Shown here: positions 2,779 through 43,565 of the stretch, piece after piece | Position numbering within the stretch: position 1 is the stretch's first letter | How the letters are laid out: each line of letters opens with the position of its first letter | Assembly: GCA_037310415.1 (NCBI GenBank) | Contig: CP147780.1 | Span: 1,056,001 to 1,120,000 of the forward strand | Source of the DNA: Candidatus Atabeyarchaeum deiterrae | GTDB taxonomy: Archaea; Asgardarchaeota; Atabeyarchaeia; Atabeyarchaeales; Atabeyarchaeaceae | Direction of reading: 5' to 3' | DNA length: 64,000 bases | Translations under genes and position numbers: made by a program | The notes under the pieces: model-generated | What the model was told of the DNA's origin: nothing | What the model saw: the letters and a program-made list of their open reading frames with translations, nothing else | Databases searched by the model: none

Positions 2779-3897
2779 CTACTTCAAGAGATTGTTCAGA
2801 GTATCGATTATCTTGGAGAGGTCTTCGCTAGTGACGGCTGGATGGCAAGGAAGGGACATGACTTCGTCCGCGGCGACCTCTGATTCTGGGAAGTCACCTT
2901 TTCTGTACTTGAAAGTGCTCGCGTAATAGGGTGACAAATGTATGGGACTTTCATAGTACGCGGCCGCCGTGATTCCATTCTCTCCGAGCTTCTTAATTAT
3001 GTCGTTACGAGACAATGGTGACTTACCAGATCTTACTCTGGTGGTGTAGAGGTACCATGTATGTTTAGCCCATTCTTCAACCATTGGAAGCTCTATGCCT
3101 GGAAGGTGGTCCTTGAGACCCTCTGTGAGGGCAAAAGCGTTTCTCTTTCTAGCTTCCAGGAAAGTAGGCAATTTTCTGAGTTGAACACGTCCTATGGCTG
3201 CCTCAATCTCTGGCATCCTATAGTTGTGACCAAGCATTTCGCATTGATATTCTTCTTTCTCCCCATGTCTCCTAATCATCCAGATTCTGTTTGCGAGCTC
3301 GTCGTCGCTTGTAGTTACCGCTCCTCCCTCACCTGTCGTAATATTCTTGCTGGCATAGAATGAAAAGCAGGCTAGATGCCCGATGGAACCGGTTTTCTTC
3401 CCCTTATACTCAGCTCCAATTGACTGGGCGCAATCTTCGATAACATAGATTCCTTTGTTCTCGGCCAGCTCCATCAACGGATCCATGTCAGCAGGGTGAC
3501 CATAAAGATGAACAGGAATTATGGCCTTGGTCCTTTTTGTAATCACTTTCTTGACCTTGCTAGGATCAATAGTATAGTTTCTCCCAGTTATGTCCGCGAA
3601 GACGGGTCTCGCGCCTGCTAGCAGAGCGACGTTGGCAGTGGCAATAAATGTGAACGGAGGAACAATCACCTCATCTCCGCTCTTGATACCGACCGCGAGA
3701 AGAGCTGAGTGAAGGGCAGCAGTTCCAGAGTTCACAGTCAACACATGTTTTACACCCAAGTATGATCCGAGCTCATTCTGGAACGCTTTATTCATCGGTC
3801 CCTCGCCGAGGCGGTTAGTCAATATCCCCGAACTTAGGACTTTCATTACTTCCTCCTTTTCTTCTGATCCTACAATAGGTCTGTTTATTGGTATCAT
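2779..3897 (-). CDS. DegT/DnrJ/EryC1/StrS PLP-dependent nucleotide-sugar aminotransferase
   Basis: NSGTAALH, PVHLYG, IEDCAQ and SFYASKNITTGEGG (PLP lysine). Confidence 0.93.
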   Translation of the reverse strand: MIPINRPIVGSEEKEEVMKVLSSGILTNRLGEGPMNKAFQNELGSYLGVKHVLTVNSGTAALHSALLAVGIKSGDEVIVPPFTFIATANVALLAGARPVFADITGRNYTIDPSKVKKVITKRTKAIIPVHLYGHPADMDPLMELAENKGIYVIEDCAQSIGAEYKGKKTGSIGHLACFSFYASKNITTGEGGAVTTSDDELANRIWMIRRHGEKEEYQCEMLGHNYRMPEIEAAIGRVQLRKLPTFLEARKRNAFALTEGLKDHLPGIELPMVEEWAKHTWYLYTTRVRSGKSPLSRNDIIKKLGENGITAAAYYESPIHLSPYYASTFKYRKGDFPESEVAADEVMSLPCHPAVTSEDLSKIIDTLNNLLK

Positions 3898-4182
3898 GCT
3901 TAGTATCAGACTCCGTGAAGAATCATGCTATGAGGAATAGTGAGAGGTACCTGACGCATATACATTCTTCTACTTTGGGTTCTCTTCACCGACGAGAGTT
4001 TATATCAGTTTTGATGCAAACCATCCTAATAGAAGGCAGCAGTTCTAACATTCTCTACCACGATGGACATCAGTGTCTTCAATCAAAGCGTCTTGATGGA
4101 ATAGACGTTGATACATGTCCATCGCGAAAGAGATATATCATACATCAGCCTTATCCTGAACTAGGAGGTATGAGGGTTGGAA

Positions 4183-4347
4183 ATGGAAGAAGAAAAGAAA
4201 GCGGAATACTATAAGAAACCAGAGCAGGTTGCGGCAGCACCGAAACCAGCGCACAAACCGGTACACAAGAAAGCAATACCCAAGGTCAAAGCCAAAGGCA
4301 AAGGCAAAGGCAAAGGCAAAGGCAAGGCAAAAGCACGCAAGAAATAG
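4183..4347 (+). CDS. Small Lys/Ala/Pro-rich basic protein (54 aa), not in the ORF track
   Basis: Translates to MEEEKKAEYYKKPEQVAAAPKPAHKPVHKKAIPKVKAKGKGKGKGKGKAKARKK*; G-rich RBS-like sequence upstream and T-rich tract downstream (~4405-4430). Confidence 0.65.
   Translation: MEEEKKAEYYKKPEQVAAAPKPAHKPVHKKAIPKVKAKGKGKGKGKGKAKARKK
4294..4326 (+). repeat. Hexanucleotide tandem repeat (AAAGGC)x5 encoding (KG)n
   Basis: aaaggcaaaggcaaaggcaaaggcaaaggcaag read directly. Confidence 0.9.
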
Positions 4348-4447
4348 AAAATGTTACGCGTCTCAAAGGAAGCATTGGCATCGCTAAGCCCAGTCTGCCT
4401 CGCTTCCCTTCTTTTGTTTTCTGTCTTTTTCGGGGCGCACAGGTTCA

Positions 4448-5320
4448 TCAGGTACACTGATTCTTGAGGCACTGAGGCGTGAGGTTATCATCCCTCGTGG
4501 GATTTAATCTCGACAAGGCCTCTGCTTTGACTGGGGTTACCACCTTGCCTACAAGTCCGTGGAGAGAGTAAGGCAGCCTTGCGAATCTTGTTCCTCCTCT
4601 CGTAACCCATGGATCTATCGGTATGTGTTGCTCTTCTTTCACCCATTTTGCTAGTGCATCTCTTTCCTGGAATCGCAACTCGTACGCGCTAGGATCCTCT
4701 ATGTAGATGTGGAAGCCGCGTCCAGAGTAGATAACTTCAAGGTTAATGTAGCCTTTGCTCAGAAGAATGCCGTGGAGGCGGCGCGTGTATATTGCGGCTT
4801 TCCTGAAGCAGATGTAGCAGAACTGGTACATTGACTTTCTCCTAATTCTCTCGCCCAGAGTTCCACAGTTGGGGCAGTCAATGTTCTCAGGATCTATATC
4901 GAACATGAGATGTTGTCCCACTATATTAGTGCACGAGGCACAGTTCTTCTTTCCTAGCTTTCTGCATTTTAGGCATTTCTCCTTGTCTTCGTAGAGATTC
5001 CTATCGTAGTAGGTGTCCTCAGGACAATAGTCCACCAAGTTGTATCTCAGGTCATCGAGGTCTCTGACAGAAAAGAGGATTAAGGAACCTGCTGATGTAC
5101 TGTATTTCTTTCGTACTATTCCGCTCTCTGCCCCCACGTCAACTGAGAAGATCGGGTTTCTTAGTGGTTCGGGTAGCCGATGAAACCACTGTTTGACTTG
5201 ACCAATGGCGAATTCATCGGAGTAGAACTTCTTTCTCTGCAGGATCGTCGGCGGAAAATGATTGACAGGAAAACACAGCCTCTGAGACAAAGTCGATTCC
5301 TCTTGGTAATACTCTTTCAA
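4448..5320 (-). CDS. Archaeo-eukaryotic primase small subunit (PriS)-like protein with Cys clusters
   Basis: FDID, YSGRGFHI and RxxRLPYSLHG AEP motifs; CxxC pairs. Confidence 0.8.
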   Translation of the reverse strand: MKEYYQEESTLSQRLCFPVNHFPPTILQRKKFYSDEFAIGQVKQWFHRLPEPLRNPIFSVDVGAESGIVRKKYSTSAGSLILFSVRDLDDLRYNLVDYCPEDTYYDRNLYEDKEKCLKCRKLGKKNCASCTNIVGQHLMFDIDPENIDCPNCGTLGERIRRKSMYQFCYICFRKAAIYTRRLHGILLSKGYINLEVIYSGRGFHIYIEDPSAYELRFQERDALAKWVKEEQHIPIDPWVTRGGTRFARLPYSLHGLVGKVVTPVKAEALSRLNPTRDDNLTPQCLKNQCT

Positions 5321-5345
5321 AGAATCTGCCGACCGACTTGGACTC

Positions 5346-6305
5346 TCAAGATACAGTCCATTTCTTTTCCTCAGCCTTTTCGTCTTCAGACTCTTGAACT
5401 TGACCCTTGCTGGACAGCATTTTAAGGTATGCAGAGGTCGTAAGTGCTGTTGCCACTGACTTCAATTCGCCTGACCAACCCAAGTTGAGCGATTTCTCAA
5501 TCATGTTAGCAACCTGCTGAGTCTTGGCTTCACCAAGCTGGCTGACTGTTTCGTATACTTCCTTTTTCCAAATCTCATGTGCATCTACTGCTCTGTTAAC
5601 TTGCTCCTTAATATTCCCACCAGAATAAGGCGCGTCATGAGACGGAACGAGGAGATCAATTCTCAATTCCAGCAGTCTATTCAATATGATCTCCTTTCTC
5701 TCAGCACTCCCCGTTAAGTCTATCACGTACTTTCCGGGATTAGAAGGAACTTCGATTACCTCGTCTCCTGCAAAAACAGCTCTCCTATAATCATCGTAGT
5801 ACATGACATGCCCGCCGCAATGACCCCCACTATGAATAACTGTTAAGGTAGAAAACCCCAAATCAAGTTTCTCCCCGCCCAGAAGAATGGAATCAGGGTT
5901 AATCGGCGCAATCTTCCCAAAGGTCGACTTCAGTTTTCGTGTTTCTGCACTTGACTCCCCAAACACATTGAAATGCTTTGTCGCGAGCGTGCTTGGATCT
6001 CTCAAAGCCTCGGCACCCGTGCCATGGATGTAGATTTTTCCACCAGTCGCACTTTTCAGGTCAAATGCTGAGCCGAAGTGGTCAAGGTGCTCATGTGTCA
6101 AGAGAATATAGCTGACGTCCTTTTTTGGATCCTTTCCGGACTTCTTGATGGCATCTATCACTTCTCTCCATAGCTCGCCCTTGCTTCCTGTGTCGATCAC
6201 GGCTATTTTTCTGTCGATGATTATGAAGGCAGAGTTGGCAATTCCATTCCCGTTGCTTTTCCCCGTGACTCTAATCAACCCTGGATACATTTCCTCGTAA
6301 GTCAA
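5346..6305 (-). CDS. Metallo-beta-lactamase-fold hydrolase with C-terminal helical/wHTH domain
   Basis: IDTG, THEHLDHFG, GHCGGH, FAGD and PSHD. Confidence 0.88.
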   Translation of the reverse strand: MTYEEMYPGLIRVTGKSNGNGIANSAFIIIDRKIAVIDTGSKGELWREVIDAIKKSGKDPKKDVSYILLTHEHLDHFGSAFDLKSATGGKIYIHGTGAEALRDPSTLATKHFNVFGESSAETRKLKSTFGKIAPINPDSILLGGEKLDLGFSTLTVIHSGGHCGGHVMYYDDYRRAVFAGDEVIEVPSNPGKYVIDLTGSAERKEIILNRLLELRIDLLVPSHDAPYSGGNIKEQVNRAVDAHEIWKKEVYETVSQLGEAKTQQVANMIEKSLNLGWSGELKSVATALTTSAYLKMLSSKGQVQESEDEKAEEKKWTVS

Positions 6306-6446: not shown

Positions 6447-7364
6447 TTAGATAAATAGCGTGAGAACAAATAGAAGAATCGACCCAATGAATAGGGTTGC
6501 GAAGACAAGTTTGCTCCAATGGAGAACCTTCTCCCCATCCAATGGCGGGACAGGAAGCAGGTTGAACAAAGCCAGCCATCCACTTAGGTTAGCGCCGATG
6601 AAAAAGATTAGCGAGAAATCAGAGAGGATGAAGGCAAATGCTACCATTGTGACACCTATCGCAATGTTAGTGGCTGGTCCTGCCGCCGCTGTCTTCCCAA
6701 ACTCTTTGGGAGTTGCGTTTCCACCTATCATGACCGCACCAGGCATGTATATCTTCCAAGGGAGAAGTAAGAATACAACCGTCAAGAAGGCGTAATAAGG
6801 TATTATCCTGAATTCCGCTATCAAGCCGTGTCTCTGGGCGACGAACTTATGTGCGAGTTCGTGAGGGAGAAAACTCAGAAAGAGAATCACAGTAAGAAAG
6901 AGGAAGAGAGTCCAGTCAAAGTAGGTGAGAAAGGGTAACAGGTAGAGCGGAACCATAATTGAAAGACTCAGCAATGCCAGTAAACCCAAAGCAACTAGTA
7001 AGTGCATGACCTCGGTTCTTGAAGAGTGCCCTCTACCTTTCTTCACTGTGTAAGGTTCTCCATAATCGACTCGGTAGTAGTAGGAAGGTCCAGATTGAGA
7101 TTCTTCCTCACTCTCGTCATCGTACTTACTTGACTTCACGGAGACTTGACCAAGCACCGAAGTAGGGGAATCTTTCTGCAGTACTCCAAGGGGCTGCGCT
7201 TTCTGGGTTTCGGGAGTGCCAGTGCAATCATGTGACTCTGGTAATCTGTGCTTCGCACAATAGTATTTCTGGCAATGCCTGCATGAGTATGGTAGAGACA
7301 CAGATTCTCCGCATTTAGCGCATTTCGTCAATTCCCTTTCAACTCTAAGGATGCAGATGGTCAA
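6447..7364 (-). CDS. AN1-type zinc finger fused to an M50 (site-2) membrane metalloprotease
   Basis: CAKC..CRHCQKYYCAKHRLPESHDC; HELAH; AAGP; NLLPVPPLDG; several TM segments. Confidence 0.9.
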   Translation of the reverse strand: MTICILRVERELTKCAKCGESVSLPYSCRHCQKYYCAKHRLPESHDCTGTPETQKAQPLGVLQKDSPTSVLGQVSVKSSKYDDESEEESQSGPSYYYRVDYGEPYTVKKGRGHSSRTEVMHLLVALGLLALLSLSIMVPLYLLPFLTYFDWTLFLFLTVILFLSFLPHELAHKFVAQRHGLIAEFRIIPYYAFLTVVFLLLPWKIYMPGAVMIGGNATPKEFGKTAAAGPATNIAIGVTMVAFAFILSDFSLIFFIGANLSGWLALFNLLPVPPLDGEKVLHWSKLVFATLFIGSILLFVLTLFI

Positions 7365-9759: not shown

Positions 9760-10680
9760 TTGAGAATCGGAGTTATCTACGGACGCTTAACAGGTATTTG
9801 GCCCGCCAGAATGCTTGTCAGGAGCATCGAGAAGCTCGGGCATACTCCCATCTTTTTATCCTTGCGCCACGTCACTGCCACAGTCGGAAGAAATAATGAT
9901 CAGACGAATACAGAACAAGAAGGCGGCGACGCAATGAGATTCAATTGCAGAGGCAGAAGTCTGGATGATCTGAGCGCCGCCTTGGTCAGAACCTTGTCCT
10001 ACGGAACTCTCGACCAAATCACATACAGAATCTCTTTGTTGGAACACATGGAGAAGTCAGGGATCTTCGTGGTTAACTCAGCCTATGCGTTCCGACGGGC
10101 TAGAGACAAATATGCATCGCTGTTCTACCTGGAGAAGAACGCTATCCCTGTTCCAAAGACTGTCGTAACTGAAAGCTTCAGGCAAGCTCTGAAAGCCGTC
10201 AGAACAATAGGAGACGTGGTGATAAAACCTCTCGTCGGTGCTAGAGGGGAGGGCTCGATACGCACTTCAGATTTTGACGTGGCCTACAGAGCCTTGAAGG
10301 CTGCCTACTCAGTGGGGCAAGTTCTCTACATCCAACAGTACATTCCGAAACCTGATCGGGATATCAGGGCCTTCATCGTGGGCGATGAAGTCATCTCGGC
10401 TATGTATCGAATTGCGTCTCCAGGAGCATGGAAAACAAATGTTGCACAACAGGGAAAACCTGTCAAGTGCGAGCTAACGAGCGAACTGGAAGATCTTGCA
10501 GTCAGAGCATCTAGGTCTTTGGGGCTAGAATACAGTGGAGTAGATATAATAGAAGGTGAGAGTGGACCACGAATCACCGAAGTGAATGCCGCGCCAACAT
10601 GGCATGGCTTGCAGAAAGTGACGCCCTTCGACATTGCCGATCGCATTATGGAGCATGTCATCAAGACGGTCAAAAGATAG
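9760..10680 (+). CDS. RimK-family ATP-grasp alpha-L-glutamate ligase (TTG start preferred over 9721)
   Basis: RDK, PVPKT, IKPLVG, QQYIP..DIR, WKTN, GVDI and EVN motifs; GGAGG upstream of 9760. Confidence 0.88.
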   Translation: MRIGVIYGRLTGIWPARMLVRSIEKLGHTPIFLSLRHVTATVGRNNDQTNTEQEGGDAMRFNCRGRSLDDLSAALVRTLSYGTLDQITYRISLLEHMEKSGIFVVNSAYAFRRARDKYASLFYLEKNAIPVPKTVVTESFRQALKAVRTIGDVVIKPLVGARGEGSIRTSDFDVAYRALKAAYSVGQVLYIQQYIPKPDRDIRAFIVGDEVISAMYRIASPGAWKTNVAQQGKPVKCELTSELEDLAVRASRSLGLEYSGVDIIEGESGPRITEVNAAPTWHGLQKVTPFDIADRIMEHVIKTVKR

Positions 10681-20700: not shown

Positions 20701-21885
20701 CTACAACTGTTTATTTGATAGTATCGTAACGCCGGCAACCGACCCTGTTCCACCTAGATTATGAGTTAGACCTATCTCAGCACCGCTGACCTGTCTTTTG
20801 TCTGCTTCATTTCTTAAATGCCAAGATATCTCGCAGATCTGTGCGATTCCCGTTGCTCCTATCGGATGCCCTTTGCTCTTCAGACCGCCACTCGGATTTA
20901 TCGGTATCTTTCCACCTATCTCGGTATTACCCTGTTCTATGAACTTTCCTCCTTCGCCCTTCTTGCAAAATCCTAAGTCCTCGGTGTCCAGTATTTCTGT
21001 TATTGTGAAGCAGTCATGAACCTCGGCTAGATTGATGTCTTCGGGTCCAATGCCAGCCATCTTGTAGGCCTCCTTACCAGCTTCAACGGTCGCATAGAAT
21101 GTTGTAAAGTCTGGTTTAGACGCCATATTGAAAGTGTCAGTGGCAAGCCCCAAGCCAGCGACGTAGACTGGAGCGTCGGTGTATTTCTTGGCAAGCTCGG
21201 CCCGTGTGATTATTACTGCTGCGGCTCCATCGGTGACGGGGCAACAGTCATAGAGTCCAAGTGGAGAGCATACCATTGGCGCCTTAAGAACATCCTCTAG
21301 CTTGATCGGCCTCTGGAAATGAGCATACGGGTCTAATGCCCCATTCTTGTGGTTCTTGACGGCCACGTAACCCATCTGTTGTTTTGTGGTACCAAAATCA
21401 TGCATATGTCTATTCGCGTAGAATGCAAATACGGCCGGCGCTGTCATCCCTCTTGCATAGATTGGATGCATTCCCCGAGCAACTACCCCTTGAAGTGATT
21501 CTATCGGGGGCACGTCGCGCATCTTCTCTACTCCAAGGGCCAAGGCAACATCATATGCCCCAGATGCGACTGCAAAGCAAGCATTTCTGAAGGAATCGGA
21601 GCCAGTTGCACAGGCGTTCTCTAGCCTTGATACTGGTCTTGGAAAGAATGAGAGTGGTTCTGCAAGGGAAGCTCCGGTTAGTATCTCGCGTTTTATTATG
21701 CTGCCTATGCAGGTACCGAGCCAAGCAGCTTGTATTTCCTTTTGATCCATTCCATTATCCACACTTTTAAGCGCGTTCAAGTATGCTTCGCTCATCATAT
21801 CCTCGTAACTCTTTTCGAATAATTCTCCGAACTTGATCATCCCAAAACCTACAACGGCGACTTTGTTCCTCATTTTCATCTTCAC
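20701..21885 (-). CDS. Thiolase, SCP2/archaeal type
   Basis: ENACATGS, EVHDCF, KGHPIGATG and HNLGG. Confidence 0.93.
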   Translation of the reverse strand: MKMKMRNKVAVVGFGMIKFGELFEKSYEDMMSEAYLNALKSVDNGMDQKEIQAAWLGTCIGSIIKREILTGASLAEPLSFFPRPVSRLENACATGSDSFRNACFAVASGAYDVALALGVEKMRDVPPIESLQGVVARGMHPIYARGMTAPAVFAFYANRHMHDFGTTKQQMGYVAVKNHKNGALDPYAHFQRPIKLEDVLKAPMVCSPLGLYDCCPVTDGAAAVIITRAELAKKYTDAPVYVAGLGLATDTFNMASKPDFTTFYATVEAGKEAYKMAGIGPEDINLAEVHDCFTITEILDTEDLGFCKKGEGGKFIEQGNTEIGGKIPINPSGGLKSKGHPIGATGIAQICEISWHLRNEADKRQVSGAEIGLTHNLGGTGSVAGVTILSNKQL

Positions 21886-21921: not shown

Positions 21922-22347
21922 CTACTTCTTGGCTTCCGTTGCTTCTCTAATCGGTTTTGCGCGGAAGCCGTATCTGAACAAGCCCTCGGCCTCACCAAAT
22001 CTTCTGAAGACCAGTTCTACAGGCATGTCTATCTTGACTTCCTCTGGCTTTGCCTGCGTCATGGACACCATTAACCTTGCTCCGTCTTCTGTGTCGACTA
22101 TCGTCATGATCGTGGGGGTCTCAAAACCTGGGGGCATAACATGTTCAACCGTGAACGTCACAACTTTTGCTCTTCTGCTGATGTTGTGATCTTCGAATCC
22201 CTCCGCGCTTGCGCACTTGAGGCAGATTCTCCCCATCTTCGGGAAGTTTATGTAACCACATTTCTTGCACTTCAGACCTACGAGCCTGTACAGTTGTGGG
22301 ATTTCTCTCCACAACATTGGAGAAGCGATCGACATTTTTAGTTTCAT
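21922..22347 (-). CDS. DUF35 Zn-ribbon/OB-fold thiolase partner
   Basis: CKKCG..CLKC followed by an OB-fold ending YGFRAKP. Confidence 0.9.
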   Translation of the reverse strand: MKLKMSIASPMLWREIPQLYRLVGLKCKKCGYINFPKMGRICLKCASAEGFEDHNISRRAKVVTFTVEHVMPPGFETPTIMTIVDTEDGARLMVSMTQAKPEEVKIDMPVELVFRRFGEAEGLFRYGFRAKPIREATEAKK

Positions 22348-22356
22348 TCCTCCTCT

Positions 22357-23400
22357 TCAAGGACTTGCCGATATTACTCCTTTCAACTTCGCATACTGGA
22401 TATAGTTTATTGTCTCCTTCGATTTCTGGAAATTCTTGATAGAGAAGAGTGCATTCTTCTTGGCTTCCGCAGTGGGCAACAACTTGAGGCTGATTGCATC
22501 ACTGCATCCGGCGCCGTACGACAGCAACATGATTCGTTCATTTGGTTTAGCTTGTTCAAAGACCTGCGCTAGACCTAGAAGTACGTACGCAGCTCCAGTC
22601 TCTCCGAAAACATTGAATGTGATTCCAGGCATCAAGTTTGGCATATCGAATCCGACTTTCTTCGAAGCATCTATACCTTTTGACGGATCGATGCCAAACG
22701 GTAGCATTTGCTGCACGACGTACCTGAAGTCCTTGGAAGTCTTCCCTAGTTTCTTAATTAGACCGCTGGCGGCTTCAACCACAGCCTTTGTGTAACCGTA
22801 CTCTCTTGCGAATCTATCGTCTCCGCTATCCCTTTCATATGCGTCGGCGCTTCTTCTCCACCTGTCTGCGAATTCATATGCAGAAGAGGTTGCGCCTTCG
22901 ATCTCCGCTATGGCATTCTCCTTACCAAGCATAACAGCGCCTGCTCCAGCGCCTGAATAGAATTCGAGCGTAGAACCTGGAGATCCCAGTAGACTGTCAG
23001 TTCCTATTACTAAGCCGTACTTGGCTCTGCCAGCGTTTATGAGATCCATGCAAGCCAACAAGGCAGAGGTTCCTGCCCTTGCAGAGCCGCCAAACTCCAT
23101 TAGCGTAGCTGAAGAGGGCACACCAATATGAGCGGCGATCGTCGTTGACACTGTCCTGTCAGCGTAAGGACTTGAGGTAGTTCCAACATAAACAGCCTCA
23201 ACCTTCTCTGGCGAAATACCAGAATGCCGAACAGCATTAGTAGCTGCCTCTGCAGCCATTGTGACTACATCCTCGTCTGTGCTCGGCACGGCCTTCTCAA
23301 CATCCATTAATGGTGGCGGATAGTTGCTTGCCTTCAAAATCTCGCTCAACTTTATTCTATAGCTCGGTACGTAAGTCCCTATACCTACTATGCCGACCAT
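22357..23400 (-). CDS. HMG-CoA synthase-family protein lacking the canonical catalytic Cys/His
   Basis: MVGI..YVPSYRI, DED..TMA, GAGAGA and SYGAG present; FGGSARAG in place of FACKAG. Confidence 0.8.
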   Translation of the reverse strand: MVGIVGIGTYVPSYRIKLSEILKASNYPPPLMDVEKAVPSTDEDVVTMAAEAATNAVRHSGISPEKVEAVYVGTTSSPYADRTVSTTIAAHIGVPSSATLMEFGGSARAGTSALLACMDLINAGRAKYGLVIGTDSLLGSPGSTLEFYSGAGAGAVMLGKENAIAEIEGATSSAYEFADRWRRSADAYERDSGDDRFAREYGYTKAVVEAASGLIKKLGKTSKDFRYVVQQMLPFGIDPSKGIDASKKVGFDMPNLMPGITFNVFGETGAAYVLLGLAQVFEQAKPNERIMLLSYGAGCSDAISLKLLPTAEAKKNALFSIKNFQKSKETINYIQYAKLKGVISASP

Positions 23401-23613: not shown

Positions 23614-23985
23614 CTATTGGCTGCTCTCCAAACGGCTCACGTAGTCTCTGTGATCGAGCATCGCTCTTATGGCTAGTGCTGCCGTCTGAGGTTCCTCGTA
23701 TACCGGGATGCCACCTTCTTGCCTAAGGTACCGCAAGACCCTGCTATCTTCATTGGCATGTATCGTTAATCCGATTATTGGCTTTCCGTATCTATGCTTA
23801 AGTTCCGCAAGCAGTTTGGCTTCATCCAGTTCTCGTTTTGTTCCCATCTCCGTTATGATCGTATCTTCTAAGACAACGGTGAAAGCTTCGAGTAACCCGA
23901 CACCTATGACTATCACGCAATCTATGTAGCCTTCTTTGAGAAGCGTTTCGGCGCATGTAGACACAACGCCTTCCCCGAAGGCTCC
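23614..23985 (-). pseudogene. Orphan 3' fragment (123 codons) of the acetate-CoA ligase alpha gene; left boundary of the island
   Basis: 96/111 aa identical to the C-terminus of 59789..61243 from GAFG onward; similarity stops abruptly at 23985. Confidence 0.92.
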
Positions 23986-24290
23986 GTTTTTGTTTGAGGA
24001 GCATTTTCTCGGCTCGGTTTTGTTTTTCCGCATTTTCTTTTGGTTCTTCACGCGCGTGAAATGCATGTTTTCTTGGGTGGTATTTGAAGTCCACGCGGGG
24101 CATTTTTCGGTGGTGCATTCTACGGTGCCGTAGACTGTTTTGCATGATTCTTCGGATTCTGTCTGGTTTTGCGTTTTTGTTGCAGTTTCGGTCTTGTTTT
24201 GCATTTTTCGGTGGTTCTCATAGCTTCTCCTTGCACGGATCTGTGGGTCGGCAGACGTGTGGAGTTTTGGCTCGGGGCCCGTGGTCGCCT
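23986..24290 (+). other. A-poor, T/G-rich non-coding tract with palindromes and a 15-nt direct repeat
   Basis: About 30 A in 305 nt by hand count; palindrome TTCACGCGCGTGAA (24047-24060); hairpin TCTACGG-tg-CCGTAGA (24119-24134); GCATTTTTCGGTGGT at 24100 and 24201. Confidence 0.75.
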
Positions 24291-24397
24291 TGTTAATGGG
24301 ATCGAAAGTATTGAATCTTGCGATCTTCAACAGACTTAAATACGTGGAATGTTGGAAGTATTTTCAATGCTAAAATTAGGAGGGTGAGAGAGGAAAA

Positions 24398-25075
24398 ATG
24401 TTGAAGCGTTCTAGTCGTCTAGCTTTGATAGTGGTTACGACTATTCTCGTTTTTTCGCTTTCGTTTGCAATGTCCGCTCGACCAGTGTCTGCGGGTCAGA
24501 CGTTCATTAATTCGGTTCGATTTGGGAATGATTTTGGTTACGGAAGGATCAACGTCGATCTCTACCGCCAAGGTACTGGATACAGTTTCAAGGTGACATT
24601 CTACTACGAGATATGGGTGTGCACAGACGTACGTTACTACCCCCAAACGGGACATATAGACAACCTGAGGCTGGGGGTCGACACTTGCAACGCGGCGCAC
24701 ACGCAATGGTACCACCAGCTATATTCTGGATTAGTGATGTTGACTGGGGTAGTTAACCAGTATTTTGAAATTGGTGGTACGCAGGTTGCCACTAAGTATC
24801 ATGATGGTGTGAAGTATACAGTCTACTACGGGACAGTGATCTTTGGACCGACCTATAATCCGTACAGTGGACAATACATCAACGCCTACATGATGTGGGG
24901 TGCATGGAATATCAACATGATATATTTCGAAATCATTGTGAGTATGAATTATGCCGAGCTTGCGAAAGATCAGAATGCGTTAATAATGGACTATTTCCGA
25001 GATCTGTACTCGAACGCGTACCAAGTTACGTACTTCCCGGACGTATTCTTCTTAGCTAACCCGCCCTGGCAATGA
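24398..25075 (+). CDS. Secreted Tyr/Gly-rich protein of unknown function
   Basis: Signal peptide MLKRSSRLALIVV..PVSA; GGAGGGTGA RBS; T-tract downstream. Confidence 0.75.
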   Translation: MLKRSSRLALIVVTTILVFSLSFAMSARPVSAGQTFINSVRFGNDFGYGRINVDLYRQGTGYSFKVTFYYEIWVCTDVRYYPQTGHIDNLRLGVDTCNAAHTQWYHQLYSGLVMLTGVVNQYFEIGGTQVATKYHDGVKYTVYYGTVIFGPTYNPYSGQYINAYMMWGAWNINMIYFEIIVSMNYAELAKDQNALIMDYFRDLYSNAYQVTYFPDVFFLANPPWQ

Positions 25076-25148: not shown

Positions 25149-25526
25149 GGGTCTTCTTAAGACCGTATTGATTCTACGATAGTCGGAGAAGAGTTAGGTG
25201 ATGAGAGGACTTCTAGTGTTAACTGAGGGTATGTTCAACAATGCAGGTTGCGCCAGGTCAGGAATTCGTGGAGAAGTATGTTGAGAGGATGAATTCTCCT
25301 TGTAGTGTTTGAACTCTTGATTGCTGCTCTCTATTTTGCATTTAGAGGGGTAAGCTAACTAGTTTTGCCCTGGTGTTCTTGGGGCGTTTTTGGCGCTTGC
25401 TCTTCTTGGCTTGCCAGTTGCTTCTGTTAGAAGCGTTTGTCTGGAGTGCACTTTGTTCGTGGGACTATTTTTCTCTTGTTTACGTCCATCTGAGGCGACT
25501 TACCCTTAGTTTTTTTGTTTTGGCTC

Positions 25527-25696
25527 GGCGCCCTATGCCTTCGCCCTAAAAGAACAAGTGGCGTATGTTCGGATAACGTTCCACGTGCGCCTACTTTGTT
25601 CTTTTCCCCCTCGCCTCTCGGCTCGGGGTCGGGCTCAGGCAGGGCGCCTCGCAGTGTACGGTCAAATCACCTCTCTCTTTCGTTCGAGGTGATTTG
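25527..25696 (+). ncRNA. Structured leader: branched stem-loop plus RBS-sequestering hairpin
   Basis: Stems 25527-34/25641-48, 25548-57/25596-605, 25560-68/25583-91 (two G-U pairs), a side hairpin at 25607-28, and a perfect 11-bp stem 25663-73/25686-96. Confidence 0.65.
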
Positions 25697-25697
25697 C

Positions 25698-26828
25698 TTG
25701 TACAATAATGATGATTGTTCTCGTGGCTGTGGTTCCTTTGGGCGTCGAAGGTATTCGTTGAGGGTTGATGCTCTTTCCGCTGAGGAGTGGGCTTATCTTC
25801 GTGGCTTGTACCTCGCTGATGGGACTAAGCGTGTTACCTTCTGTCTTGGTGGAGATGAGGTGGAGTTGTCGCTGAAGCTTGTTGATATGCTAAACCGCGC
25901 TGGGTTGAAGCCGATTGTGAAGAAGGATCCAGATGAAGAAATGTTGCTTGTGTCCGCGTGGTCGTTGAGTCTCCTTGAGTTTCTGGGGCGCAAAGGCACT
26001 CTGCTGCATGATGTTGAGGCGCGGAGGAGGTTCTTCGAGGAGAACAGGCTGATGAGTGTTGGGCTGGGTGTTCCCTTCATTGCGGGTCTGATAGACGGTG
26101 ACGGCTTCTGTCAGGTGAGTGTTGTTGATGAGCTTGGTCCCTTCGGCAAGGTGAACAGGTGGAGGTGGGGGTTTGCTCAGAAGAAGTTGCCGTTTCTCCT
26201 CGACTACTTCAGGGAGTTCGTTGAGTCTCTCGCACTCAAGAGCGTAAGGATTCGTGTAATGAGGAATGGCGTAGTTGTTGCAGAGATTTGTCAGGCTGGC
26301 ATCAAGGCTCTACTCAAGGCTGGCATAGCCTCCCACTCAGTGAAGGCGAACCAGTGGGTGAAGAGGGTGGAGGAGCTTGACAAAACGAGTAGGCGAGTGA
26401 GCTATTTGACTTCTAATGAGGTTGCCGAGAAGCTGAGAGTAAGTAAGCCAACCGTGTGGCGCTGGCTCAAAACTGGAAAGATGCGATGTGCCCAGTGGAC
26501 TGCGAGGAGGCTGAAGAACGGCAAGGAGACCTATCTGTCGCATCGTTACATCCATGCGGAGGAAGTTGAGCGCGTGAGGTATGAACTTGAAGAGGAAAGA
26601 GCGCTATTGAAACAAGTCAGGGAAGATGGATACGTCAAGTTCAATGATGTGGCTAGAGTTTTGAACGTTCCGAAAACCACTCTGCGACGGTGGTTTCGGA
26701 GCGGAAGAGTGCAAGTTACATTAGTCCGAGGGCGCAATAGAGACCGCGGGTACTGGATGCCGAGGAAGGACGTTGAGCGCCTCAAGCGCCGGGTCCGCAA
26801 GTCTGAAGACTTTTTGAAACGTCGCTGA
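25698..26828 (+). CDS. Double-motif LAGLIDADG endonuclease-family protein with two C-terminal excisionase/MerR-type HTH domains
   Basis: AYLRGLYLADG and FIAGLIDGDG; YLTSNEVAEKLRVSKPTVWRWLKTG and VKFNDVARVLNVPKTTLRRWFRSG; TTG start after GAGGTGA. Confidence 0.85.
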   Translation: MYNNDDCSRGCGSFGRRRYSLRVDALSAEEWAYLRGLYLADGTKRVTFCLGGDEVELSLKLVDMLNRAGLKPIVKKDPDEEMLLVSAWSLSLLEFLGRKGTLLHDVEARRRFFEENRLMSVGLGVPFIAGLIDGDGFCQVSVVDELGPFGKVNRWRWGFAQKKLPFLLDYFREFVESLALKSVRIRVMRNGVVVAEICQAGIKALLKAGIASHSVKANQWVKRVEELDKTSRRVSYLTSNEVAEKLRVSKPTVWRWLKTGKMRCAQWTARRLKNGKETYLSHRYIHAEEVERVRYELEEERALLKQVREDGYVKFNDVARVLNVPKTTLRRWFRSGRVQVTLVRGRNRDRGYWMPRKDVERLKRRVRKSEDFLKRR

Positions 26829-33013: not shown

Positions 33014-33694
33014 CTACTTCAATTCAACAAAACTGAAGAACAGATGATGAATACGAAACGGGGAGCGATCCTTCTCCCTTAAGTGCGTCGAGACGTAATG
33101 TTCCCTAAAAGCAGAAACGGAAGATGCCAAAGTCATGACTTCTACTATTCTTTCTTTATCAACTCGAGTCTTTATTTCTTTGACTATTACGGCAATCCTC
33201 CCAGTATTAATATAGCCAATCAATGAGCCGACTGTGCCATTTGCACAGTACCTCCCTTCAATATAGCGATACAACCCCTGCTTAATGTATTCCCTATAGC
33301 TTCTACTGTTGCCCTCGGCTAACAGTTTGCATTCGAAACCAAAAAACGCCTCTTTTTCCCAACGATCCCTAAAACAAAAATCGATGGTTGGTGGTTTTCC
33401 TCTATCCTTAGCGTGCTCTCGATCAATCTTTTGATTTATGGGGACAACAGCCGGTGGGACGCTGGATGCAGACCAAGCAATATTGACCTCTTTAAAAAGC
33501 TCTTCGGTGATTTCGTCCTCTGACATTTGTGGTTTGACTATGCGATTTCTATACAAGGTAGTGTATGCTTCGCAAACGATTTCGAGAAGTCTGGTGATGC
33601 CCTTGTCCCCTAGATGCTTAGCAAGGTCAAAAGGGCTGCCGGTTCTGTAACCTTCTTGCAGAGAGTCATAAGTCATTGACAATTGCTTCCCCAT
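33014..33694 (-). CDS. PD-(D/E)XK nuclease partner of the adjacent methyltransferase
   Basis: EDEIT..TIDFCF..FECKLL..YIKQGL; overlaps the MTase stop. Confidence 0.7.
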   Translation of the reverse strand: MGKQLSMTYDSLQEGYRTGSPFDLAKHLGDKGITRLLEIVCEAYTTLYRNRIVKPQMSEDEITEELFKEVNIAWSASSVPPAVVPINQKIDREHAKDRGKPPTIDFCFRDRWEKEAFFGFECKLLAEGNSRSYREYIKQGLYRYIEGRYCANGTVGSLIGYINTGRIAVIVKEIKTRVDKERIVEVMTLASSVSAFREHYVSTHLREKDRSPFRIHHLFFSFVELK

Positions 33695-36657
33695 TCTTCC
33701 ATGATATCTCTATAGACTCTGTCTGCATCTGAGATTGCTGATGACTTCGTCCAATATCTCATCTGATTGGGCTTGATGATATATACACGATTTTTGGAGT
33801 ATCTTCGAAGATGCCTTCTAACGTAAACGCCCCCCGCCTTCTCGTCAATTAACTCTTGGTCCAATTGTTTCAGAACTTTATCCATCTCTTCTTCGCCTAG
33901 CTCTTCGTTCACAATTTCCCGACCATTTGGCACTAGCTGAAGAGAGATCATGCGAAGAGGTCCTTTTGCCGAATATGTTGTTCCGATGAAACTTTGACCT
34001 GGAGGTGAGAATTGGTGATTGAGAGTTTGGCACAAATTTCTCAAGTATTTCTTGACATCAGATTCAGCGGAAGGCTTGATTGCGTCAGAGTCTCCTTTAA
34101 GGCGGAAATAGTCAAGCGTAAATCTTATCGCATCTGCCACAAGTGCCTTCTCCATCTTGTCCAGACCATAGAGATTCATCAATCTGCAATTCTCGGCTTC
34201 TCGAAATTCCTCGTCCTTTGCGAGTCTTTCGAGGAATCTCATGTCAAGGTTGCCTTTAAGAATCCCCTTGGGAATGGGAATGCTCATGATTTCGTTTTTC
34301 GCTAATTCGTCTCTCTCAACGAGCCACCTGCCGCTCGTGAGCATTGCGTAATACAATGGTAAATCTGAGTTTATTGTTTCGCAGACAGCTATAAGGTCAC
34401 TAAGACACCGTTTATCGGAGTGTATTCCAATTATGGATTGTGGAAATACGGAATCTTCGACCATTACTGCGGATATTAGACCGTACCCTTTTCTAGGACT
34501 CTGTTTTATCAGTAGGTGCGGTCCTTTGTATATCTGCCTTTTTTCTGTTCTCGATCTGATGAAACGGTTTTCAGAACATCGTTTCAATGACTTGCTTTCC
34601 ACAATATACTTCTGAAGATTTTCCGCCGTGACCTCCAGTTTTCCAATTAATTCCTTAGTGAAATACCTCCTATTTCCAACGATATACCCTTCCCCATGGA
34701 TCCAACCGCGCTCACGAGCAACCCGATCTAGAGTTGGATTAGACGATAGTTTTCTGATCAATTCATAATCTCTTGGCGACCCCCACATCGCTGTTTTCCA
34801 GATTGTTTCAGATGCCAGTGCTTCCCTGAGAGGTATCTGGGCAATGTCTTGAGGTTCAATTATGAAGGATAATTCATCTTGTAGCGTAAAACTGGGTTTA
34901 GGAGAACAATAGAAGATTGACTCATCTTCTGGAGGAGGTGAAGGCGAAAAAACTATCGCAGCTCCTGGGCCTACAGCATGCGAGAAGAGTAAGTGCCTAA
35001 GGGCAGAGAAGTTGAATATCGCTTTAATCTCATATGTAGAGAAAAAGGCCTTCCTAAATTGCGAATTGCGAGATGAACGATTGAAAAGTAATGCTTTACT
35101 GGACACAATCATGCAGACTTTTCCTTCAGGCTTGCAAAGGTCAGCACTCTTCCAGAGGAAGACTTGACAGATTTGTCGGTCTCCGATTTTCTTGCGACAT
35201 AATTTGACGTATCTTTCCGCGGACTTTGAAAGTTTGCTTTCCCAAGGCGGGTTGCCCACCACCAAATCGAATTTATCATGAAGTTTCGGAATGTTTTCAA
35301 GGGAATCGGCGACAAAGAGATTACCGCCGACCAACCGCTCAAATTTCACCTCATCCCAGATGGTTTTAGGCTCTAGATAGTCGCATACAGTTAGGTAGAG
35401 ACTTAAGGCAGAGATTCTAATCGCTTTTTCATCAAGGTCAACACCAAAAATGCTATTCTTGAGTATTTTGACAAGTTCTGAGGGAGTAGGATTTTGGTAG
35501 CGATTCGATTTCTTCCAGCGAGCTACTAATCTTCGGTAACCTTCGACCAAAAAGATCCCTGAACCACATGCTGGGTCAATTATTCGCATGCTGATGTTTG
35601 GGTCTGAAAGAGGCATGACTTCATCCATTAAGAAGGCGACTAGGTGATACGGCGTATAGTGAATGCCTCTCGGCCACACTTCTTCGTTTTCCTTTTTAAG
35701 TGTGAGGAATTGTTCGTATATGCTACTTATCAATTCGACGGGTATCACGTCAAAAGAGTATAGAGGCCATAGGACCATTTGGCGAGTATCAAGATATTCT
35801 TCGCCCTTTAGCATCCTTTGCAGTAAGTCTAGGTGATCTTGCTTGATTATATTTTCTTCATCTTGCTCAACTACGAAAATATCTCCGTTGAATTTTTCAT
35901 CGAGATATCTAAAGAAGTCGTATGCCGCTTTCTTTGCGCTCAGTAAATCAGTAAAGCAAGCTGCGTCGCAATGGAACCGACTAAAGAAACCCTGTGGAAA
36001 GACACCTCGTCCTTGCGTATCTCGTCTGTCTTCAAGATATTTGATAAAAATCGAGCGAACAAGGATGGAATGAACAATTTTGGATGATAGTCCAGCACCG
36101 ATAAGTTTTCGCCTCATATAGTCAAGATTCTTGAGCAACATCTGAAAAATGCTGCTATCTGTTTTGAAAATACTTATGTTTCTACGCCAATAGTTGCCTG
36201 TTTCGAGTTCAGCTCTTTCATAGTTTCTGAACGATTTTCTCTCATTTTCGACTTCCGAGAAGACTTTGAGTTCTTCAATGAGGCCAGCTTTGTCGTCTCC
36301 TTTTTTGGGAGGTTCCAGATTATTATATATTCGAACTGCATCTGGCAGAACAATAAATAGAAGTGGGGCTTGGCCCATGTTCCATGACAGTTTGTGCAAT
36401 TCAGCTATTTTGGAAGCGGTCGGATGCTCCATTAGTTTGAAGTATATTAACGGTATGGAAGACCCGCCTCTCTGAGGTCTGAGAAAGTATATTGCATCAA
36501 TACCCAGCTTTTTTATTGAGTCTGCAATAATTTGCCTGACATAGGCATCTTCGGTCGAGAGAACATCAGTGACGAGTCCATTATATTTCGAGAAGTCGAG
36601 AAGAGAACAAACCTGTTCAAAGGATGCCTGACTCTTTGGTTTGCCGTTAACTGACAT
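33673..36657 (-). CDS. N6-adenine DNA methyltransferase, type IIG/Eco57I-like, with target-recognition domain
   Basis: ELISSIYE, HYTP, IDPACGSGIFL and VGNPPW. Confidence 0.9.
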   Translation of the reverse strand: MSVNGKPKSQASFEQVCSLLDFSKYNGLVTDVLSTEDAYVRQIIADSIKKLGIDAIYFLRPQRGGSSIPLIYFKLMEHPTASKIAELHKLSWNMGQAPLLFIVLPDAVRIYNNLEPPKKGDDKAGLIEELKVFSEVENERKSFRNYERAELETGNYWRRNISIFKTDSSIFQMLLKNLDYMRRKLIGAGLSSKIVHSILVRSIFIKYLEDRRDTQGRGVFPQGFFSRFHCDAACFTDLLSAKKAAYDFFRYLDEKFNGDIFVVEQDEENIIKQDHLDLLQRMLKGEEYLDTRQMVLWPLYSFDVIPVELISSIYEQFLTLKKENEEVWPRGIHYTPYHLVAFLMDEVMPLSDPNISMRIIDPACGSGIFLVEGYRRLVARWKKSNRYQNPTPSELVKILKNSIFGVDLDEKAIRISALSLYLTVCDYLEPKTIWDEVKFERLVGGNLFVADSLENIPKLHDKFDLVVGNPPWESKLSKSAERYVKLCRKKIGDRQICQVFLWKSADLCKPEGKVCMIVSSKALLFNRSSRNSQFRKAFFSTYEIKAIFNFSALRHLLFSHAVGPGAAIVFSPSPPPEDESIFYCSPKPSFTLQDELSFIIEPQDIAQIPLREALASETIWKTAMWGSPRDYELIRKLSSNPTLDRVARERGWIHGEGYIVGNRRYFTKELIGKLEVTAENLQKYIVESKSLKRCSENRFIRSRTEKRQIYKGPHLLIKQSPRKGYGLISAVMVEDSVFPQSIIGIHSDKRCLSDLIAVCETINSDLPLYYAMLTSGRWLVERDELAKNEIMSIPIPKGILKGNLDMRFLERLAKDEEFREAENCRLMNLYGLDKMEKALVADAIRFTLDYFRLKGDSDAIKPSAESDVKKYLRNLCQTLNHQFSPPGQSFIGTTYSAKGPLRMISLQLVPNGREIVNEELGEEEMDKVLKQLDQELIDEKAGGVYVRRHLRRYSKNRVYIIKPNQMRYWTKSSAISDADRVYRDIMEEWGSNCQ

Positions 36658-40317: not shown

Positions 40318-40359
40318 GTTGAGCGTCTCAAGCGCGAACTTAAAGGTGACGAATCATGA
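40318..40359 (+). repeat. Remnant of the HTH terminal helix ending in a stop codon
   Basis: GTTGAGCGTCTCAAGCGC is 17/18 identical to 26772-26789; reads VERLKRELKGDES*. Confidence 0.75.
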
Positions 40360-40494: not shown

Positions 40495-41619
40495 TCAAGT
40501 CAGTATCTTTTGTGGGGGAGGAGAAGAAAGTATTTTCAACGTGTCGAAGGCGATAGGTTCGTCGATTCTCCAAGGGATAGTCAAGCATTTCTTCGCTGGA
40601 AGACGAACTCTCTCCGGGATTGACCGTGCTTCCGGGTTTAGTATGATCAGCAGAAACTTCGGGTTGAGTTTGGCCGCATCGAGGAACGCATTGTTGATGG
40701 CTTGGTCTCTGAATGAGTAGCCTATCGACAAGTGCGCGTCTCCTTCCATGAGTTCGCGTCTAAGTGCGGAGAAATATGTTGCATAGGGATCCTGTGATAC
40801 ATATTTCTCGTCCATGGGGTAGACCATCAGTTTGCCAGCTACCTTCTCGCCGTGGAAGGAGACGGAAGAAGGTTCCTCTCTGCGCTGGACTATCTTGCCA
40901 TCCTCAAAGATGAAGCGATCGATTGAGCCATGCAGCTTTATTAGTTGTATTCGCACGCCGCCTATGATCCCGTGAGGAGTAAATATGGGCTGTCTTTGAG
41001 CTTCGTTGAGGGAGAATCCATCTGTCAAGTGCTTACCTTTGCTTTCGAAGTACCTCTCTATTGCGAGATCGTAGTTTGTTGTTGCTATGGCGAAGTTTTT
41101 GAGTTCATATTTCTCTCCGTTGGCGTATACGTCTATAGATTGACCGAAGGGCATTATGGCAAAGAGCTTGTCGTATGTCTCCCCTGCCTTGTCGGCGTTG
41201 ACTTTATTGCATTCTTCTGATATCACTTTCTTCGCCCACTCGATGGCATCTTCGATCTCGGGATCTGCTTGGGGTAAGAGTTTGCTGATTGGCGTTTCCT
41301 TGACTGGTGTGCCGCTTGGCATGGCTGGTGTTTCGGCGAGAGAGGCAGCAACATAGCTGGCAAATGGCCCCGCTTCTTTCAGCGCACGCTGCGGTCTCAG
41401 TAGACCATTCAAAACAGAGAAGACCGTTTCAATGTCAACCTCTCTCTGTTCGTAGCCAGATCTCACTAGTTGTCTCTCAACGGAATCTATTAGCTCGAGC
41501 GCATGATCAAGTCCTTCCTTCTCCAGTCTTGCCTTCACCGCTTTATAGAGTCCTAGCATGGTTTCCACACCGAAGACCTTTGAGATTCCAGCTCCGACAA
41601 ACAACATTGCCAACACCAC
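40495..41619 (-). CDS. SIR2-like (SIR2_2) protein, candidate defence NADase
   Basis: FVGAGIS, TTNYD, KLHGS and IGYSFRD. Confidence 0.88.
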   Translation of the reverse strand: MVLAMLFVGAGISKVFGVETMLGLYKAVKARLEKEGLDHALELIDSVERQLVRSGYEQREVDIETVFSVLNGLLRPQRALKEAGPFASYVAASLAETPAMPSGTPVKETPISKLLPQADPEIEDAIEWAKKVISEECNKVNADKAGETYDKLFAIMPFGQSIDVYANGEKYELKNFAIATTNYDLAIERYFESKGKHLTDGFSLNEAQRQPIFTPHGIIGGVRIQLIKLHGSIDRFIFEDGKIVQRREEPSSVSFHGEKVAGKLMVYPMDEKYVSQDPYATYFSALRRELMEGDAHLSIGYSFRDQAINNAFLDAAKLNPKFLLIILNPEARSIPERVRLPAKKCLTIPWRIDEPIAFDTLKILSSPPPQKILT

Positions 41620-41699: not shown

Positions 41700-43565
41700 C
41701 TATTCTTCACTCTTTGTGATTTTATCGAATTCTTGAAGGCTCCAAACCTCTTCACATATCTTCTGATAGAGTTCTGTTCTTTCCAGTAAATCTCTCTTAC
41801 TGAAATGGTCGTGCGGCTTTAAAGGCAACCCCGATTGTTCCTTGTACTTTAGGAAGTTAGGATTCATGTTGTAGCAGTTCGGATTCAATGTTCTTGCAAG
41901 CAGATTCTGGGAGTCGTAATGTGGAAGCTTCTGCTCGTAAGGGAGATTGCCGTAGCTTTGATTAAACCCTTCTGGAACTAGGAGCAAGCCGCCTATCCTA
42001 TTTCTGAGTTCCTTAAACTCTTCCTCTGTTTTTGCCTCATTTTTGTGCTCCTCATAACTATCGGACCAAATGTGCTCGATTTGGTAGGGTTTAGCCAGTT
42101 CGCGACTGGTATATTCTCTAAACCTATTTGGCATCTTTGACTTCTGTTCCAAGTAGCTTGTTATTCTTGCGAGTAGCCAATGAATGAAACGCCTACGATT
42201 CTGGGTCAACTCCAGATCCTTCAATCGATCAAACTTCTCACCAGAACTGGTTATCCTGTCCTTGAATATCTGGGAAAGTTGCCCGACATCCTTGTCGCGT
42301 ATCTCTTTGAGCAGGTTAAACATGGAATAGCTAATGGAATTGTAGGCTAAGGTCTTGTTGTTGACTGATCTGAGCACTATGTACGTCTCTAGGAATCTTG
42401 AAACTAGCTGCAGTTTCCTCTTCATTGTGTTCTCATCGTCAGTCTTCTTGATTGTTGCAATAAGTAGCGGGTAGCTAAGAGTAAAGCCTCTTTTGCCTAT
42501 GTAATACATCGTCTCTGAATCTGGAGCGAGCTCCCTTTCGGCGGCATGTATTCGACGGTACAGCTTCGCATAGAATGGCACATCGTCTTTGATAAGCTCA
42601 ACGAAATCTTTCTCAGTCTTTAGACCTATACTGTCTCTGTTATCTCTTAGCCAACTGTGTAGTCCTGCGCCAATCTTTTCAAAGTCATCGTAAGGATTGC
42701 CAGTAGTTCCCTGTTTCTCTGCGTACTTTGCTCTAAGCCAAGTCTTGAAGAACTCTATGTCTTCGGCGTAACCAATTTCGCTGAGTTCCAGGACCGTCTT
42801 TTTCCATGTTTCATTAAGTGCTTTTTGCTGTTCACCATCATTTATGCTAGATAGAAGATAGCCTTTCAACATTTCAACGGATGTGAGATCGAGACCTCTG
42901 TTATTCATCGTTTCAAATATCTGGTAAGCGTCCTCATCGGAGTATGTGACAATCTCGACTAGCACTACATTCTCCATTAGCCAGTCTATGAAGTATGGCA
43001 GCGCCTTTGCTTTCAATTCTGGAGGAAACAGTTCATCTATGTCGCCATATCTCTCTATGATGTTCTTTACGGATTCACCCTTGCCTTCCACATCGTACGT
43101 CGCTTGGCTATTGTTATAGAGTGCGTCTATGCAGTCCTTCCTGTCATCGATTTGTAAATTGTATGATTTTTCTCCATACATCTCCGAGAATATCATGTCG
43201 TTGACCCAGACCTGATCTGACCTGTTTTTCTGCAGGTTGTTCAGGTATATCAAAAGCAGGGTCAAGGAAGTCAGGCGTTGCTGCCCATCAATGATGAATT
43301 TCAAGTCACCTTTCTGGCTCAGAATGATGGGTCCGAGAAAGTAATGTCTGTACTTCTGGACATCCTTCCTTTGGTGGTTTTCTCGGTAGCTGATTGTGAA
43401 TCTCCCGGTTAAGTCCGACAGTAGTTGCTCGATGTGGGGCCTTTCCCATTTGTATTCTCTTTGGAAGACATCAACCGTGTATTTCGCTTTGTCTAGAAGT
43501 TGCCGGACTGTCCTCTCGTTAGCATCTATCTTATTGATTTTCGCATCCACCTTTGACGCCCCCAT
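41700..43565 (-). CDS. DUF262-DUF1524 (GmrSD-like) modification-dependent restriction endonuclease
   Basis: FQREYKW, IIDGQQRLT, FETMNNRG and C-terminal IEHI..N HNH-like motif. Confidence 0.9.
   Translation of the reverse strand: MGASKVDAKINKIDANERTVRQLLDKAKYTVDVFQREYKWERPHIEQLLSDLTGRFTISYRENHQRKDVQKYRHYFLGPIILSQKGDLKFIIDGQQRLTSLTLLLIYLNNLQKNRSDQVWVNDMIFSEMYGEKSYNLQIDDRKDCIDALYNNSQATYDVEGKGESVKNIIERYGDIDELFPPELKAKALPYFIDWLMENVVLVEIVTYSDEDAYQIFETMNNRGLDLTSVEMLKGYLLSSINDGEQQKALNETWKKTVLELSEIGYAEDIEFFKTWLRAKYAEKQGTTGNPYDDFEKIGAGLHSWLRDNRDSIGLKTEKDFVELIKDDVPFYAKLYRRIHAAERELAPDSETMYYIGKRGFTLSYPLLIATIKKTDDENTMKRKLQLVSRFLETYIVLRSVNNKTLAYNSISYSMFNLLKEIRDKDVGQLSQIFKDRITSSGEKFDRLKDLELTQNRRRFIHWLLARITSYLEQKSKMPNRFREYTSRELAKPYQIEHIWSDSYEEHKNEAKTEEEFKELRNRIGGLLLVPEGFNQSYGNLPYEQKLPHYDSQNLLARTLNPNCYNMNPNFLKYKEQSGLPLKPHDHFSKRDLLERTELYQKICEEVWSLQEFDKITKSEE

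Follow-up and report, generated by a model that had tools for sequence, protein, structure and literature searches.

The stretch of DNA analysed here, referred to below as the window, comprises 64,000 nucleotides (positions 1,056,001 to 1,120,000 of contig CP147780.1, assembly GCA_037310415.1) of the closed 2.76-Mb genome (46.6% G+C) of Candidatus Atabeyarchaeum deiterrae, a member of the Atabeyarchaeia, a lineage of Asgard archaea. On its minus strand, positions 59789–61243 are occupied by an intact, 484-codon gene for an ADP-forming acyl-CoA synthetase alpha subunit (acdA-like, with Pfam CoA_binding and Succ_CoA_lig domains), while a second copy consisting only of the gene's tail lies at 23614–23987 on the same strand. 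This orphan is open for 124 codons up to a stop at the homologous position and is followed by co-oriented genes for an HMGS-fold protein (22357–23400), a DUF35 protein (21922–22347) and a thiolase (20701–21885). A BlastP comparison of the orphan with intact acdA yielded 98 identical residues out of 120 without gaps (E 3e-69). Over the 120 aligned codons, the bases are 76% identical, the 86 differences are distributed 17/9/60 over the three codon positions, and the longest exact run is 15 nt, CGTGATAGTCATAGG on the coding strand, equivalent to the CCTATGACTATCACG given in a first-pass annotation made from the sequence alone. The duplication described in that annotation is therefore real, although it had counted 96 of 111 identical residues. 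Two of its boundaries need correction: native sequence resumes at position 23987 and not at 23985, and the foreign part of the intact gene begins further upstream than the homology to the orphan, at gene nt ~1035 (position 60209), such that the replaced piece is about 421 nt long and not ~370–380 nt.

In order to clarify which of the two tails is native, we performed a protein search restricted to the tail, which retrieved eleven orthologs. One of these, P0003, has a head 96% identical to that of the acdA protein in the window, whereas its tail is 97% identical to the orphan and only 81% identical to the working tail. The respective 5.4-kb contig from a JGI metagenome (L033), which stems from a 98–99% identical strain, reads SCP2 – AP-endonuclease/MJ1316 – acdA – HMGS-fold – DUF35 – thiolase. 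Its positions 1–3057 align to window positions 63266–60210 and its positions 3096–5387 align, without a break, to 23987–21696 at 98.95%. This contig is the empty site. The first-pass annotation had read the orphan as the original end of the chromosomal gene, recently displaced, and had specified that this would fail if acdA were not adjacent to the HMGS-like operon in island-free relatives or if the orphan derived from a separate paralog. Neither was the case. Besides L033, acdA lies directly beside the HMGS-like operon in Atabeyarchaeia-1 (L001) and in two further metagenome lineages (L034, L035), with the same gene order following it. The orphan differs from the L033 tail at 3 of 374 bases, no more than the neighbouring working genes (0.86%), and the displacement is thus recent relative to a strain split of 1–2%. 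In maximum-likelihood trees, the acdA head in the window is sister to the empty allele (100/100), the orphan is sister to the tail of the empty allele (94/98), and the working tail stands alone on the longest terminal branch. The interpretation that the orphan is the native end is thus supported, and the working tail from gene nt ~1035 onwards (59789–60209, gene nt 1035–1455 including the stop) is foreign. It keeps the gene in frame and intact: the 484-codon reading frame contains no internal stops and all residues that are invariant in the tail alignment are retained.

The first-pass annotation further considered the carried tail as heavily recoded. According to the Nei–Gojobori method, a comparison of working tail and orphan gives dS 1.77, dN 0.105 and dN/dS 0.06 (against the native tail, values are 1.6–1.8 for dS and 0.06–0.07 for dN/dS), and every pair of orthologous tails from different lineages of this family gives dS 0.9–4.5 and dN/dS 0.03–0.12. 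The silent differences are therefore what is expected for a genus-level foreign ortholog under purifying selection, the dN/dS value shows past purifying selection on the carried piece, and no special recoding needs to be assumed. No sampled acdA tail is more than 83% identical to the carried one at the protein level, so the donor lineage is unsampled.

The junctions are informative with regard to the mode of insertion. In 60-nt windows, the native part of acdA (60210–61243, minus strand, gene nt 1–1034) is 96–100% identical to the empty allele up to nt 1034, and the last 16 nt of this stretch, TGAATAAGATCCTTCC (60210–60225, gene nt 1019–1034), are identical between the island-bearing and empty alleles and represent the probable crossover point. 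From nt 1035, identity drops to 55–80%. The orphan, in turn, matches the empty allele only from nt 1073 (gene nt 1073–1446 including the stop). The 38 native bases in between (nt 1035–1072) are absent from the island-bearing genome, and the inserted DNA (23988–60209, 36,222 nt) thus replaced target DNA. In five natural orthologs this stretch is well conserved. The carried tail departs from it at six invariant bases, is at its most diverged here (55% identity), and changes three residues (K, V, T) that are invariant in the 12 other full-length acdA proteins compared. Of the two functions that had been suggested for the divergence of the carried tail, i.e., prevention of excision by homologous recombination and immunity to the island's own endonuclease, the evidence favours the latter. 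Differences from the L033 strain rise over positions 63266 to 60210 toward the left junction (0.4%, 0.8%, 1.6%, 1.6%, 2.4%, 2.0%, then 4 in the last 57 nt), which could reflect a short co-conversion tract or a linked strain difference.

Duplication of the 3′ end of a target gene with concomitant restoration of the gene is the hallmark of integrase-type elements, such as prophage e14 and phage 21 in the Escherichia coli icd gene, where the original end is left as an orphan (icdC), or genomic islands in the 3′ ends of tRNA or tmRNA genes. We therefore considered Campbell-type integration of a circular island with an acdA 3′ end in its attP, followed by loss of the integrase gene and of the attR core. 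The identical 16-nt block at the left junction, the report of integrase-bearing, circularising elements in these genomes by Valentin-Alvarado et al. (PMC11529989), and Xis-type helix-turn-helix (HTH) domains in an island-encoded protein (see below) would be in line with this possibility. However, six-frame scans with PF00589, PF00239 and PF16795 did not reveal any tyrosine or serine recombinase in the window, and searches with Pfam, PHROGs and NCBIfam, which covered most but not all of the island's ORFs and used loose thresholds for those without a hit, did not reveal one either. Such elements carry a diverged copy of the target gene's 3′ end and use a tyrosine integrase and a short identical core present at both junctions. 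Here, the two junctions share no core, and the duplicated piece is not an att site: the 16-mer occurs only once in the window, the 15-nt exact match within the tails cannot be the crossover because the intact gene is already foreign upstream of it, and repeat searches at both ends of the insertion gave only short chance-level pairs apart from a third acdA relic. There are no tRNA genes in the window. Together with the recurrence of the same junction in an independent host that has its own orphan, which a later chance deletion cannot explain, and with the existence of minimal elements containing only a nuclease gene (both described below), this makes a lost integrase unlikely.

The bulk of the inserted DNA (27235–59121) is a defence island, all systems of which are absent from the closely related L033. 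Pfam and PADLOC searches identified a type IIG restriction–modification system (33673–36657), SIR2 (40495–41619), a GmrSD/HEC-06-like protein (41700–43565), a PLD/DrmC-like protein (46386–47339), a mad2-like methyltransferase (47678–50539), an nSTAND3 NTPase (51376–54096), DUF365 (54240–54701) and a HerA/mad8-like ATPase of 1394 aa (54937–59121), in addition to proteins of unknown function. A 154-aa ORF between this region and the carried tail (59308–59772, plus strand) has no family hit in Pfam, PHROGs or NCBIfam. About 20 nt from the end of the gene for the 1394-aa protein, a third, 87-nt relic of an acdA 3′ end is present (59140–59226, minus strand), which terminates in EDPQMAAQAIRAMLNCTNELKRVRQQ followed by a stop. 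It contains a 66-nt repeat 76% identical to 59817–59882 and was found by tblastn with E 0.001 genome-wide. In LC30, the functional acdA end occupies the same position next to the homologous gene (L002 7303–7759), and LC30 diverges from its congener Atabeyarchaeia-1 only from gene nt ~1348. This points to a second, separate gene-end replacement site in acdA and to a related island in another genus, and the island in the window is composite.

Next to the orphan, 1.5 kb from its junction, a free-standing gene (25515–26828, plus strand, conserved core from ~25695) encodes a protein with two LAGLIDADG motifs, GLYLADG and GLIDGDG, about 100 residues apart, followed by two C-terminal Xis/MerR-type HTH_17 domains. 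The Asp-Gly of both motifs is invariant in twelve relatives. All twelve match Pfam LAGLIDADG_3 (PF14528) at E ≤ 0.01, the best at 1.3e-9, whereas the protein from the window itself scores 19.7 bits against a curated cut-off of 22.5 bits, so that this profile alone does not settle its assignment. A sequence search against PDB returned only HTH matches. An AlphaFold2 model built on the family alignment has a pLDDT of 83.7, and its top Foldseek hits against PDB, PI-SceI, I-DmoI, I-AniI and I-Tsp061I at E 1e-7 to 1e-5, agree with the double αββαββα fold of LAGLIDADG homing endonucleases. WhiA was also retrieved and shows that a LAGLIDADG plus HTH scaffold can be non-catalytic. The family is multicopy and partly decayed, with 5, about 10 and about 25 matches at 30–46% identity in three Atabeyarchaeia genomes (G000, the genome studied here, G001 and G002), although some matches are parts of one copy. 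Several copies have stop codons, as expected for the life cycle of selfish homing genes.

The conserved end of the element abutting the orphan (23988–24330) carries the sequence ..KMRKNK.EPRKC.SN.N, which runs in frame into GAFGE both in the window and in L049, a contig from a second, divergent host whose core genes are only 74–76% identical to the window at the nucleotide level. L049 carries an orphan acdA tail with the same N-GAFGE junction (KMRKNKSKPRKCLSNQN followed by GAFGE there, compared with KMRKNKTEPRKCSSNKN followed by GAFGE here), its positions 9854–10335 align to window positions 24137–23654 at 72%, and beside this end lies the same nuclease gene with 82% nucleotide identity. The remainder of that island differs apart from one weak match to the 303-aa ORF, and the HMGS-like operon lies downstream. 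The L049 orphan groups with acdA tails of its own lineage (100/98) on a longer branch, as would be expected for an older insertion. The intact acdA of the L049 host was not examined, such that it was not tested whether the carried tail travels with the element. The metagenome scan returned only two loci, close homologs of the nuclease (P0016, P0017) lie on contigs too short to reach a junction, and L050 (Logan SRR9661788) is the same DNA as L049 6805–9065. The L049 nuclease is listed in nr under 'Candidatus Njordarchaeota archaeon', i.e., the second host of the acdA-targeting element is filed under a different Asgard name. A ~1.25-kb segment in the window, which contains a 225-aa ORF without family hit (24398–25075, plus strand) and is bracketed by 17-nt direct repeats (24264–24280 and 25517–25533, 16 of 17 identical), is missing from the otherwise colinear L049 element and looks like a later insertion between the element end and the nuclease leader.

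Homologous nucleases sit between a replacement tail and an orphan tail at two other genes, as minimal elements of 1.4–1.9 kb. In L035 (1–2305), a gene for a 419-aa LAGLIDADG-HTH homolog within a 1.9-kb element lies between an intact PTP-phosphatase gene with a diverged tail and an orphan native PTP tail, and L034 (6788–7354) is the respective empty site. Native identity on the side of the intact gene fades at about L034 7054–7078 and that of the orphan begins at about 7092–7116. As both edges are gradual, this locus is compatible with a loss of target bases but establishes neither a gap nor a short shared core. In the genome studied here, at G000:C1:1216186–1217770 (L041 1274–2858), the last ~43 codons of a 136-aa gene are duplicated on either side of a gene for a 370-aa LAGLIDADG-HTH protein encoded antisense to it. 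In both cases the nuclease gene is essentially the only content (L035 also has a 49-codon call over the orphan tail). The nuclease gene, not the cargo, therefore defines the architecture. These recurrences, and that in L049, also argue against a one-off import of a linear donor fragment by one homologous crossover in acdA and one illegitimate join 38 nt downstream, with the nuclease gene as a mere passenger, even though the structure of the window alone (crossover at the 16-nt identity, loss of 38 nt and almost no microhomology at the right join) would fit. We consider this scenario very unlikely.

The general picture that emerges is that the 36.2-kb island is most likely the cargo of a homing-endonuclease element that carries its own gene end, a reading to which we assign a probability of about 0.65. 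In this view, the LAGLIDADG-HTH nuclease would cut island-free acdA within or next to gene nt ~1035–1090, and the break would be repaired from an element-bearing copy, with the acdA body upstream of nt 1034 as one homology arm and the orphan tail from nt 1073 onward, plus the HMGS-like operon, as the other. Everything between the arms would be copied in: a cleavage-resistant foreign tail that keeps acdA working, the defence genes and the nuclease gene. The recipient would keep its own tail as an orphan, and loss of the 38 nt between the arms would destroy the target in both copies, which would also account for the proposed immunity, because neither copy in the carrier retains the target. This mechanism would account for the host-specific orphans, the foreign tail, the lost 38 nt, the absence of a core and the lack of an integrase. 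Our data demonstrate the empty site, the foreign origin of the working tail and the native origin of the orphan, the missing 38 nt without a shared core, the nuclease fold (as predicted from the model) with its catalytic residues, the same junction in a second host and the same layout at two other genes, whereas we merely infer that the nuclease is active, where it cuts, that homologous recombination is the copying step and that all 36 kb moved in one event. Cleavage was not assayed and no cut site is known; the evidence is indirect and rests on the 38 nt of conserved target that are missing from the orphan and altered in the carried tail. Copying of 36 kb by break repair between hosts whose arms are only ~75% identical would be inefficient, the nuclease gene lies 33 kb from the carried tail, and the model does not explain the second insertion point at nt ~1348. 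The two Xis-like HTH domains would also fit a role in site-specific recombination. A protein that excises and inserts the element as a novel recombinase or transposase-like enzyme, with the HTH domains binding the element ends, is therefore not excluded, and the association of the protein with the junctions, the conserved element end next to the orphan and the coexistence of other elements in these genomes as circles (PMC11529989) could be cited in its favour. To our knowledge, however, LAGLIDADG proteins are hydrolytic nucleases, maturases or DNA binders and not strand-transfer enzymes, a cut-and-paste or conservative reaction would not be expected to leave a host-specific orphan and a 38-nt loss, and no terminal inverted repeats or target duplications were seen at the two ends. 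We regard this alternative as unlikely.

The same layout has been described for mobile endonuclease ORFs (mORFs) in fungal mitochondria, namely in Allomyces macrogynus atp6, Glomus sp. atp6, atp9, cox2 and nad3, Rhizopus atp9 and Mortierella cox2 (PMC3630166). There, the gene body is followed by a foreign in-frame C-terminal piece, a LAGLIDADG or GIY-YIG endonuclease ORF and the displaced native remnant. The remnant is nearly identical to close relatives, the carried piece is 64–81% identical, and the latter is read as horizontally acquired together with the endonuclease. The case reported here differs in that it resides in an archaeal chromosome, that the nuclease is fused to two HTH domains and is encoded antisense to the target gene in two of three targets rather than in phase with it, that several genes are targeted, and that 36 kb of defence genes lie between the carried tail and the nuclease gene, while mORF elements comprise about 1 kb. 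Literature searches did not reveal an archaeal chromosomal case, and the paper on the mobile elements of these very genomes lists defence islands and IS-like elements but does not mention LAGLIDADG elements (PMC11529989). In intronless homing by the free-standing Seg and Mob endonucleases of T4-like phages, the nuclease likewise cuts the allele that lacks it, the nuclease-bearing allele is protected by sequence differences at the site and flanking DNA is co-converted, but these elements do not duplicate or replace part of the target gene, belong to the GIY-YIG and HNH families and carry little cargo. Synthetic 'Cleave and Rescue' gene drives (PMC7951863) follow the same logic, in that a sequence-specific cleaver of a host gene is tightly linked to an uncleavable, recoded working version of that gene and cargo rides along. 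The likeness is functional only, as these elements are engineered with Cas9, act by killing non-carriers in sexual populations and do not insert at the target.

The movement of defence islands is mostly explained by integrases, transposases or recombination in conserved flanks. The present case would add a fourth route, a homing endonuclease that drags along tens of kilobases of cargo and pays for its insertion by bringing a spare gene end, it would extend a layout described for ~1-kb mitochondrial elements to a multicopy family with several target genes in the chromosome of an Asgard archaeon, it would explain why conserved metabolic genes in these genomes have mosaic 3′ ends, and it provides a simple, testable nuclease–target pair. 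More tentatively, since we consider it somewhat less likely than not, the whole family may work as a natural 'cleave and rescue' drive, each member cutting the 3′ part of a different conserved host gene and inserting itself together with an uncleavable foreign replacement, with the slot between nuclease and replacement tail growing by accretion into a defence island. If so, a homing endonuclease, not an integrase or transposase, moves whole defence islands between archaeal lineages and leaves mosaic gene ends behind, as seen in the swapped acdA tails of element-free relatives. Two element-free relatives from one metagenome (P0005 and P0008; L034 10001–11464 versus L035 5064–6521) have acdA heads that are 90–98% identical but tails that are only 70–76% identical from about nt 900–1080, and P0005 changes partner between the head and tail trees, which suggests earlier tail swaps. 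Within the cargo, a blastn search for orphan 3′ ends of the nuclease gene gave no match, while a motif search revealed a single candidate at 40318–40335 (plus strand), where the peptide AAVERLKRELKGDES, followed by a stop, resembles the C-terminal end of the nuclease (..DVERLKRRVRK..).
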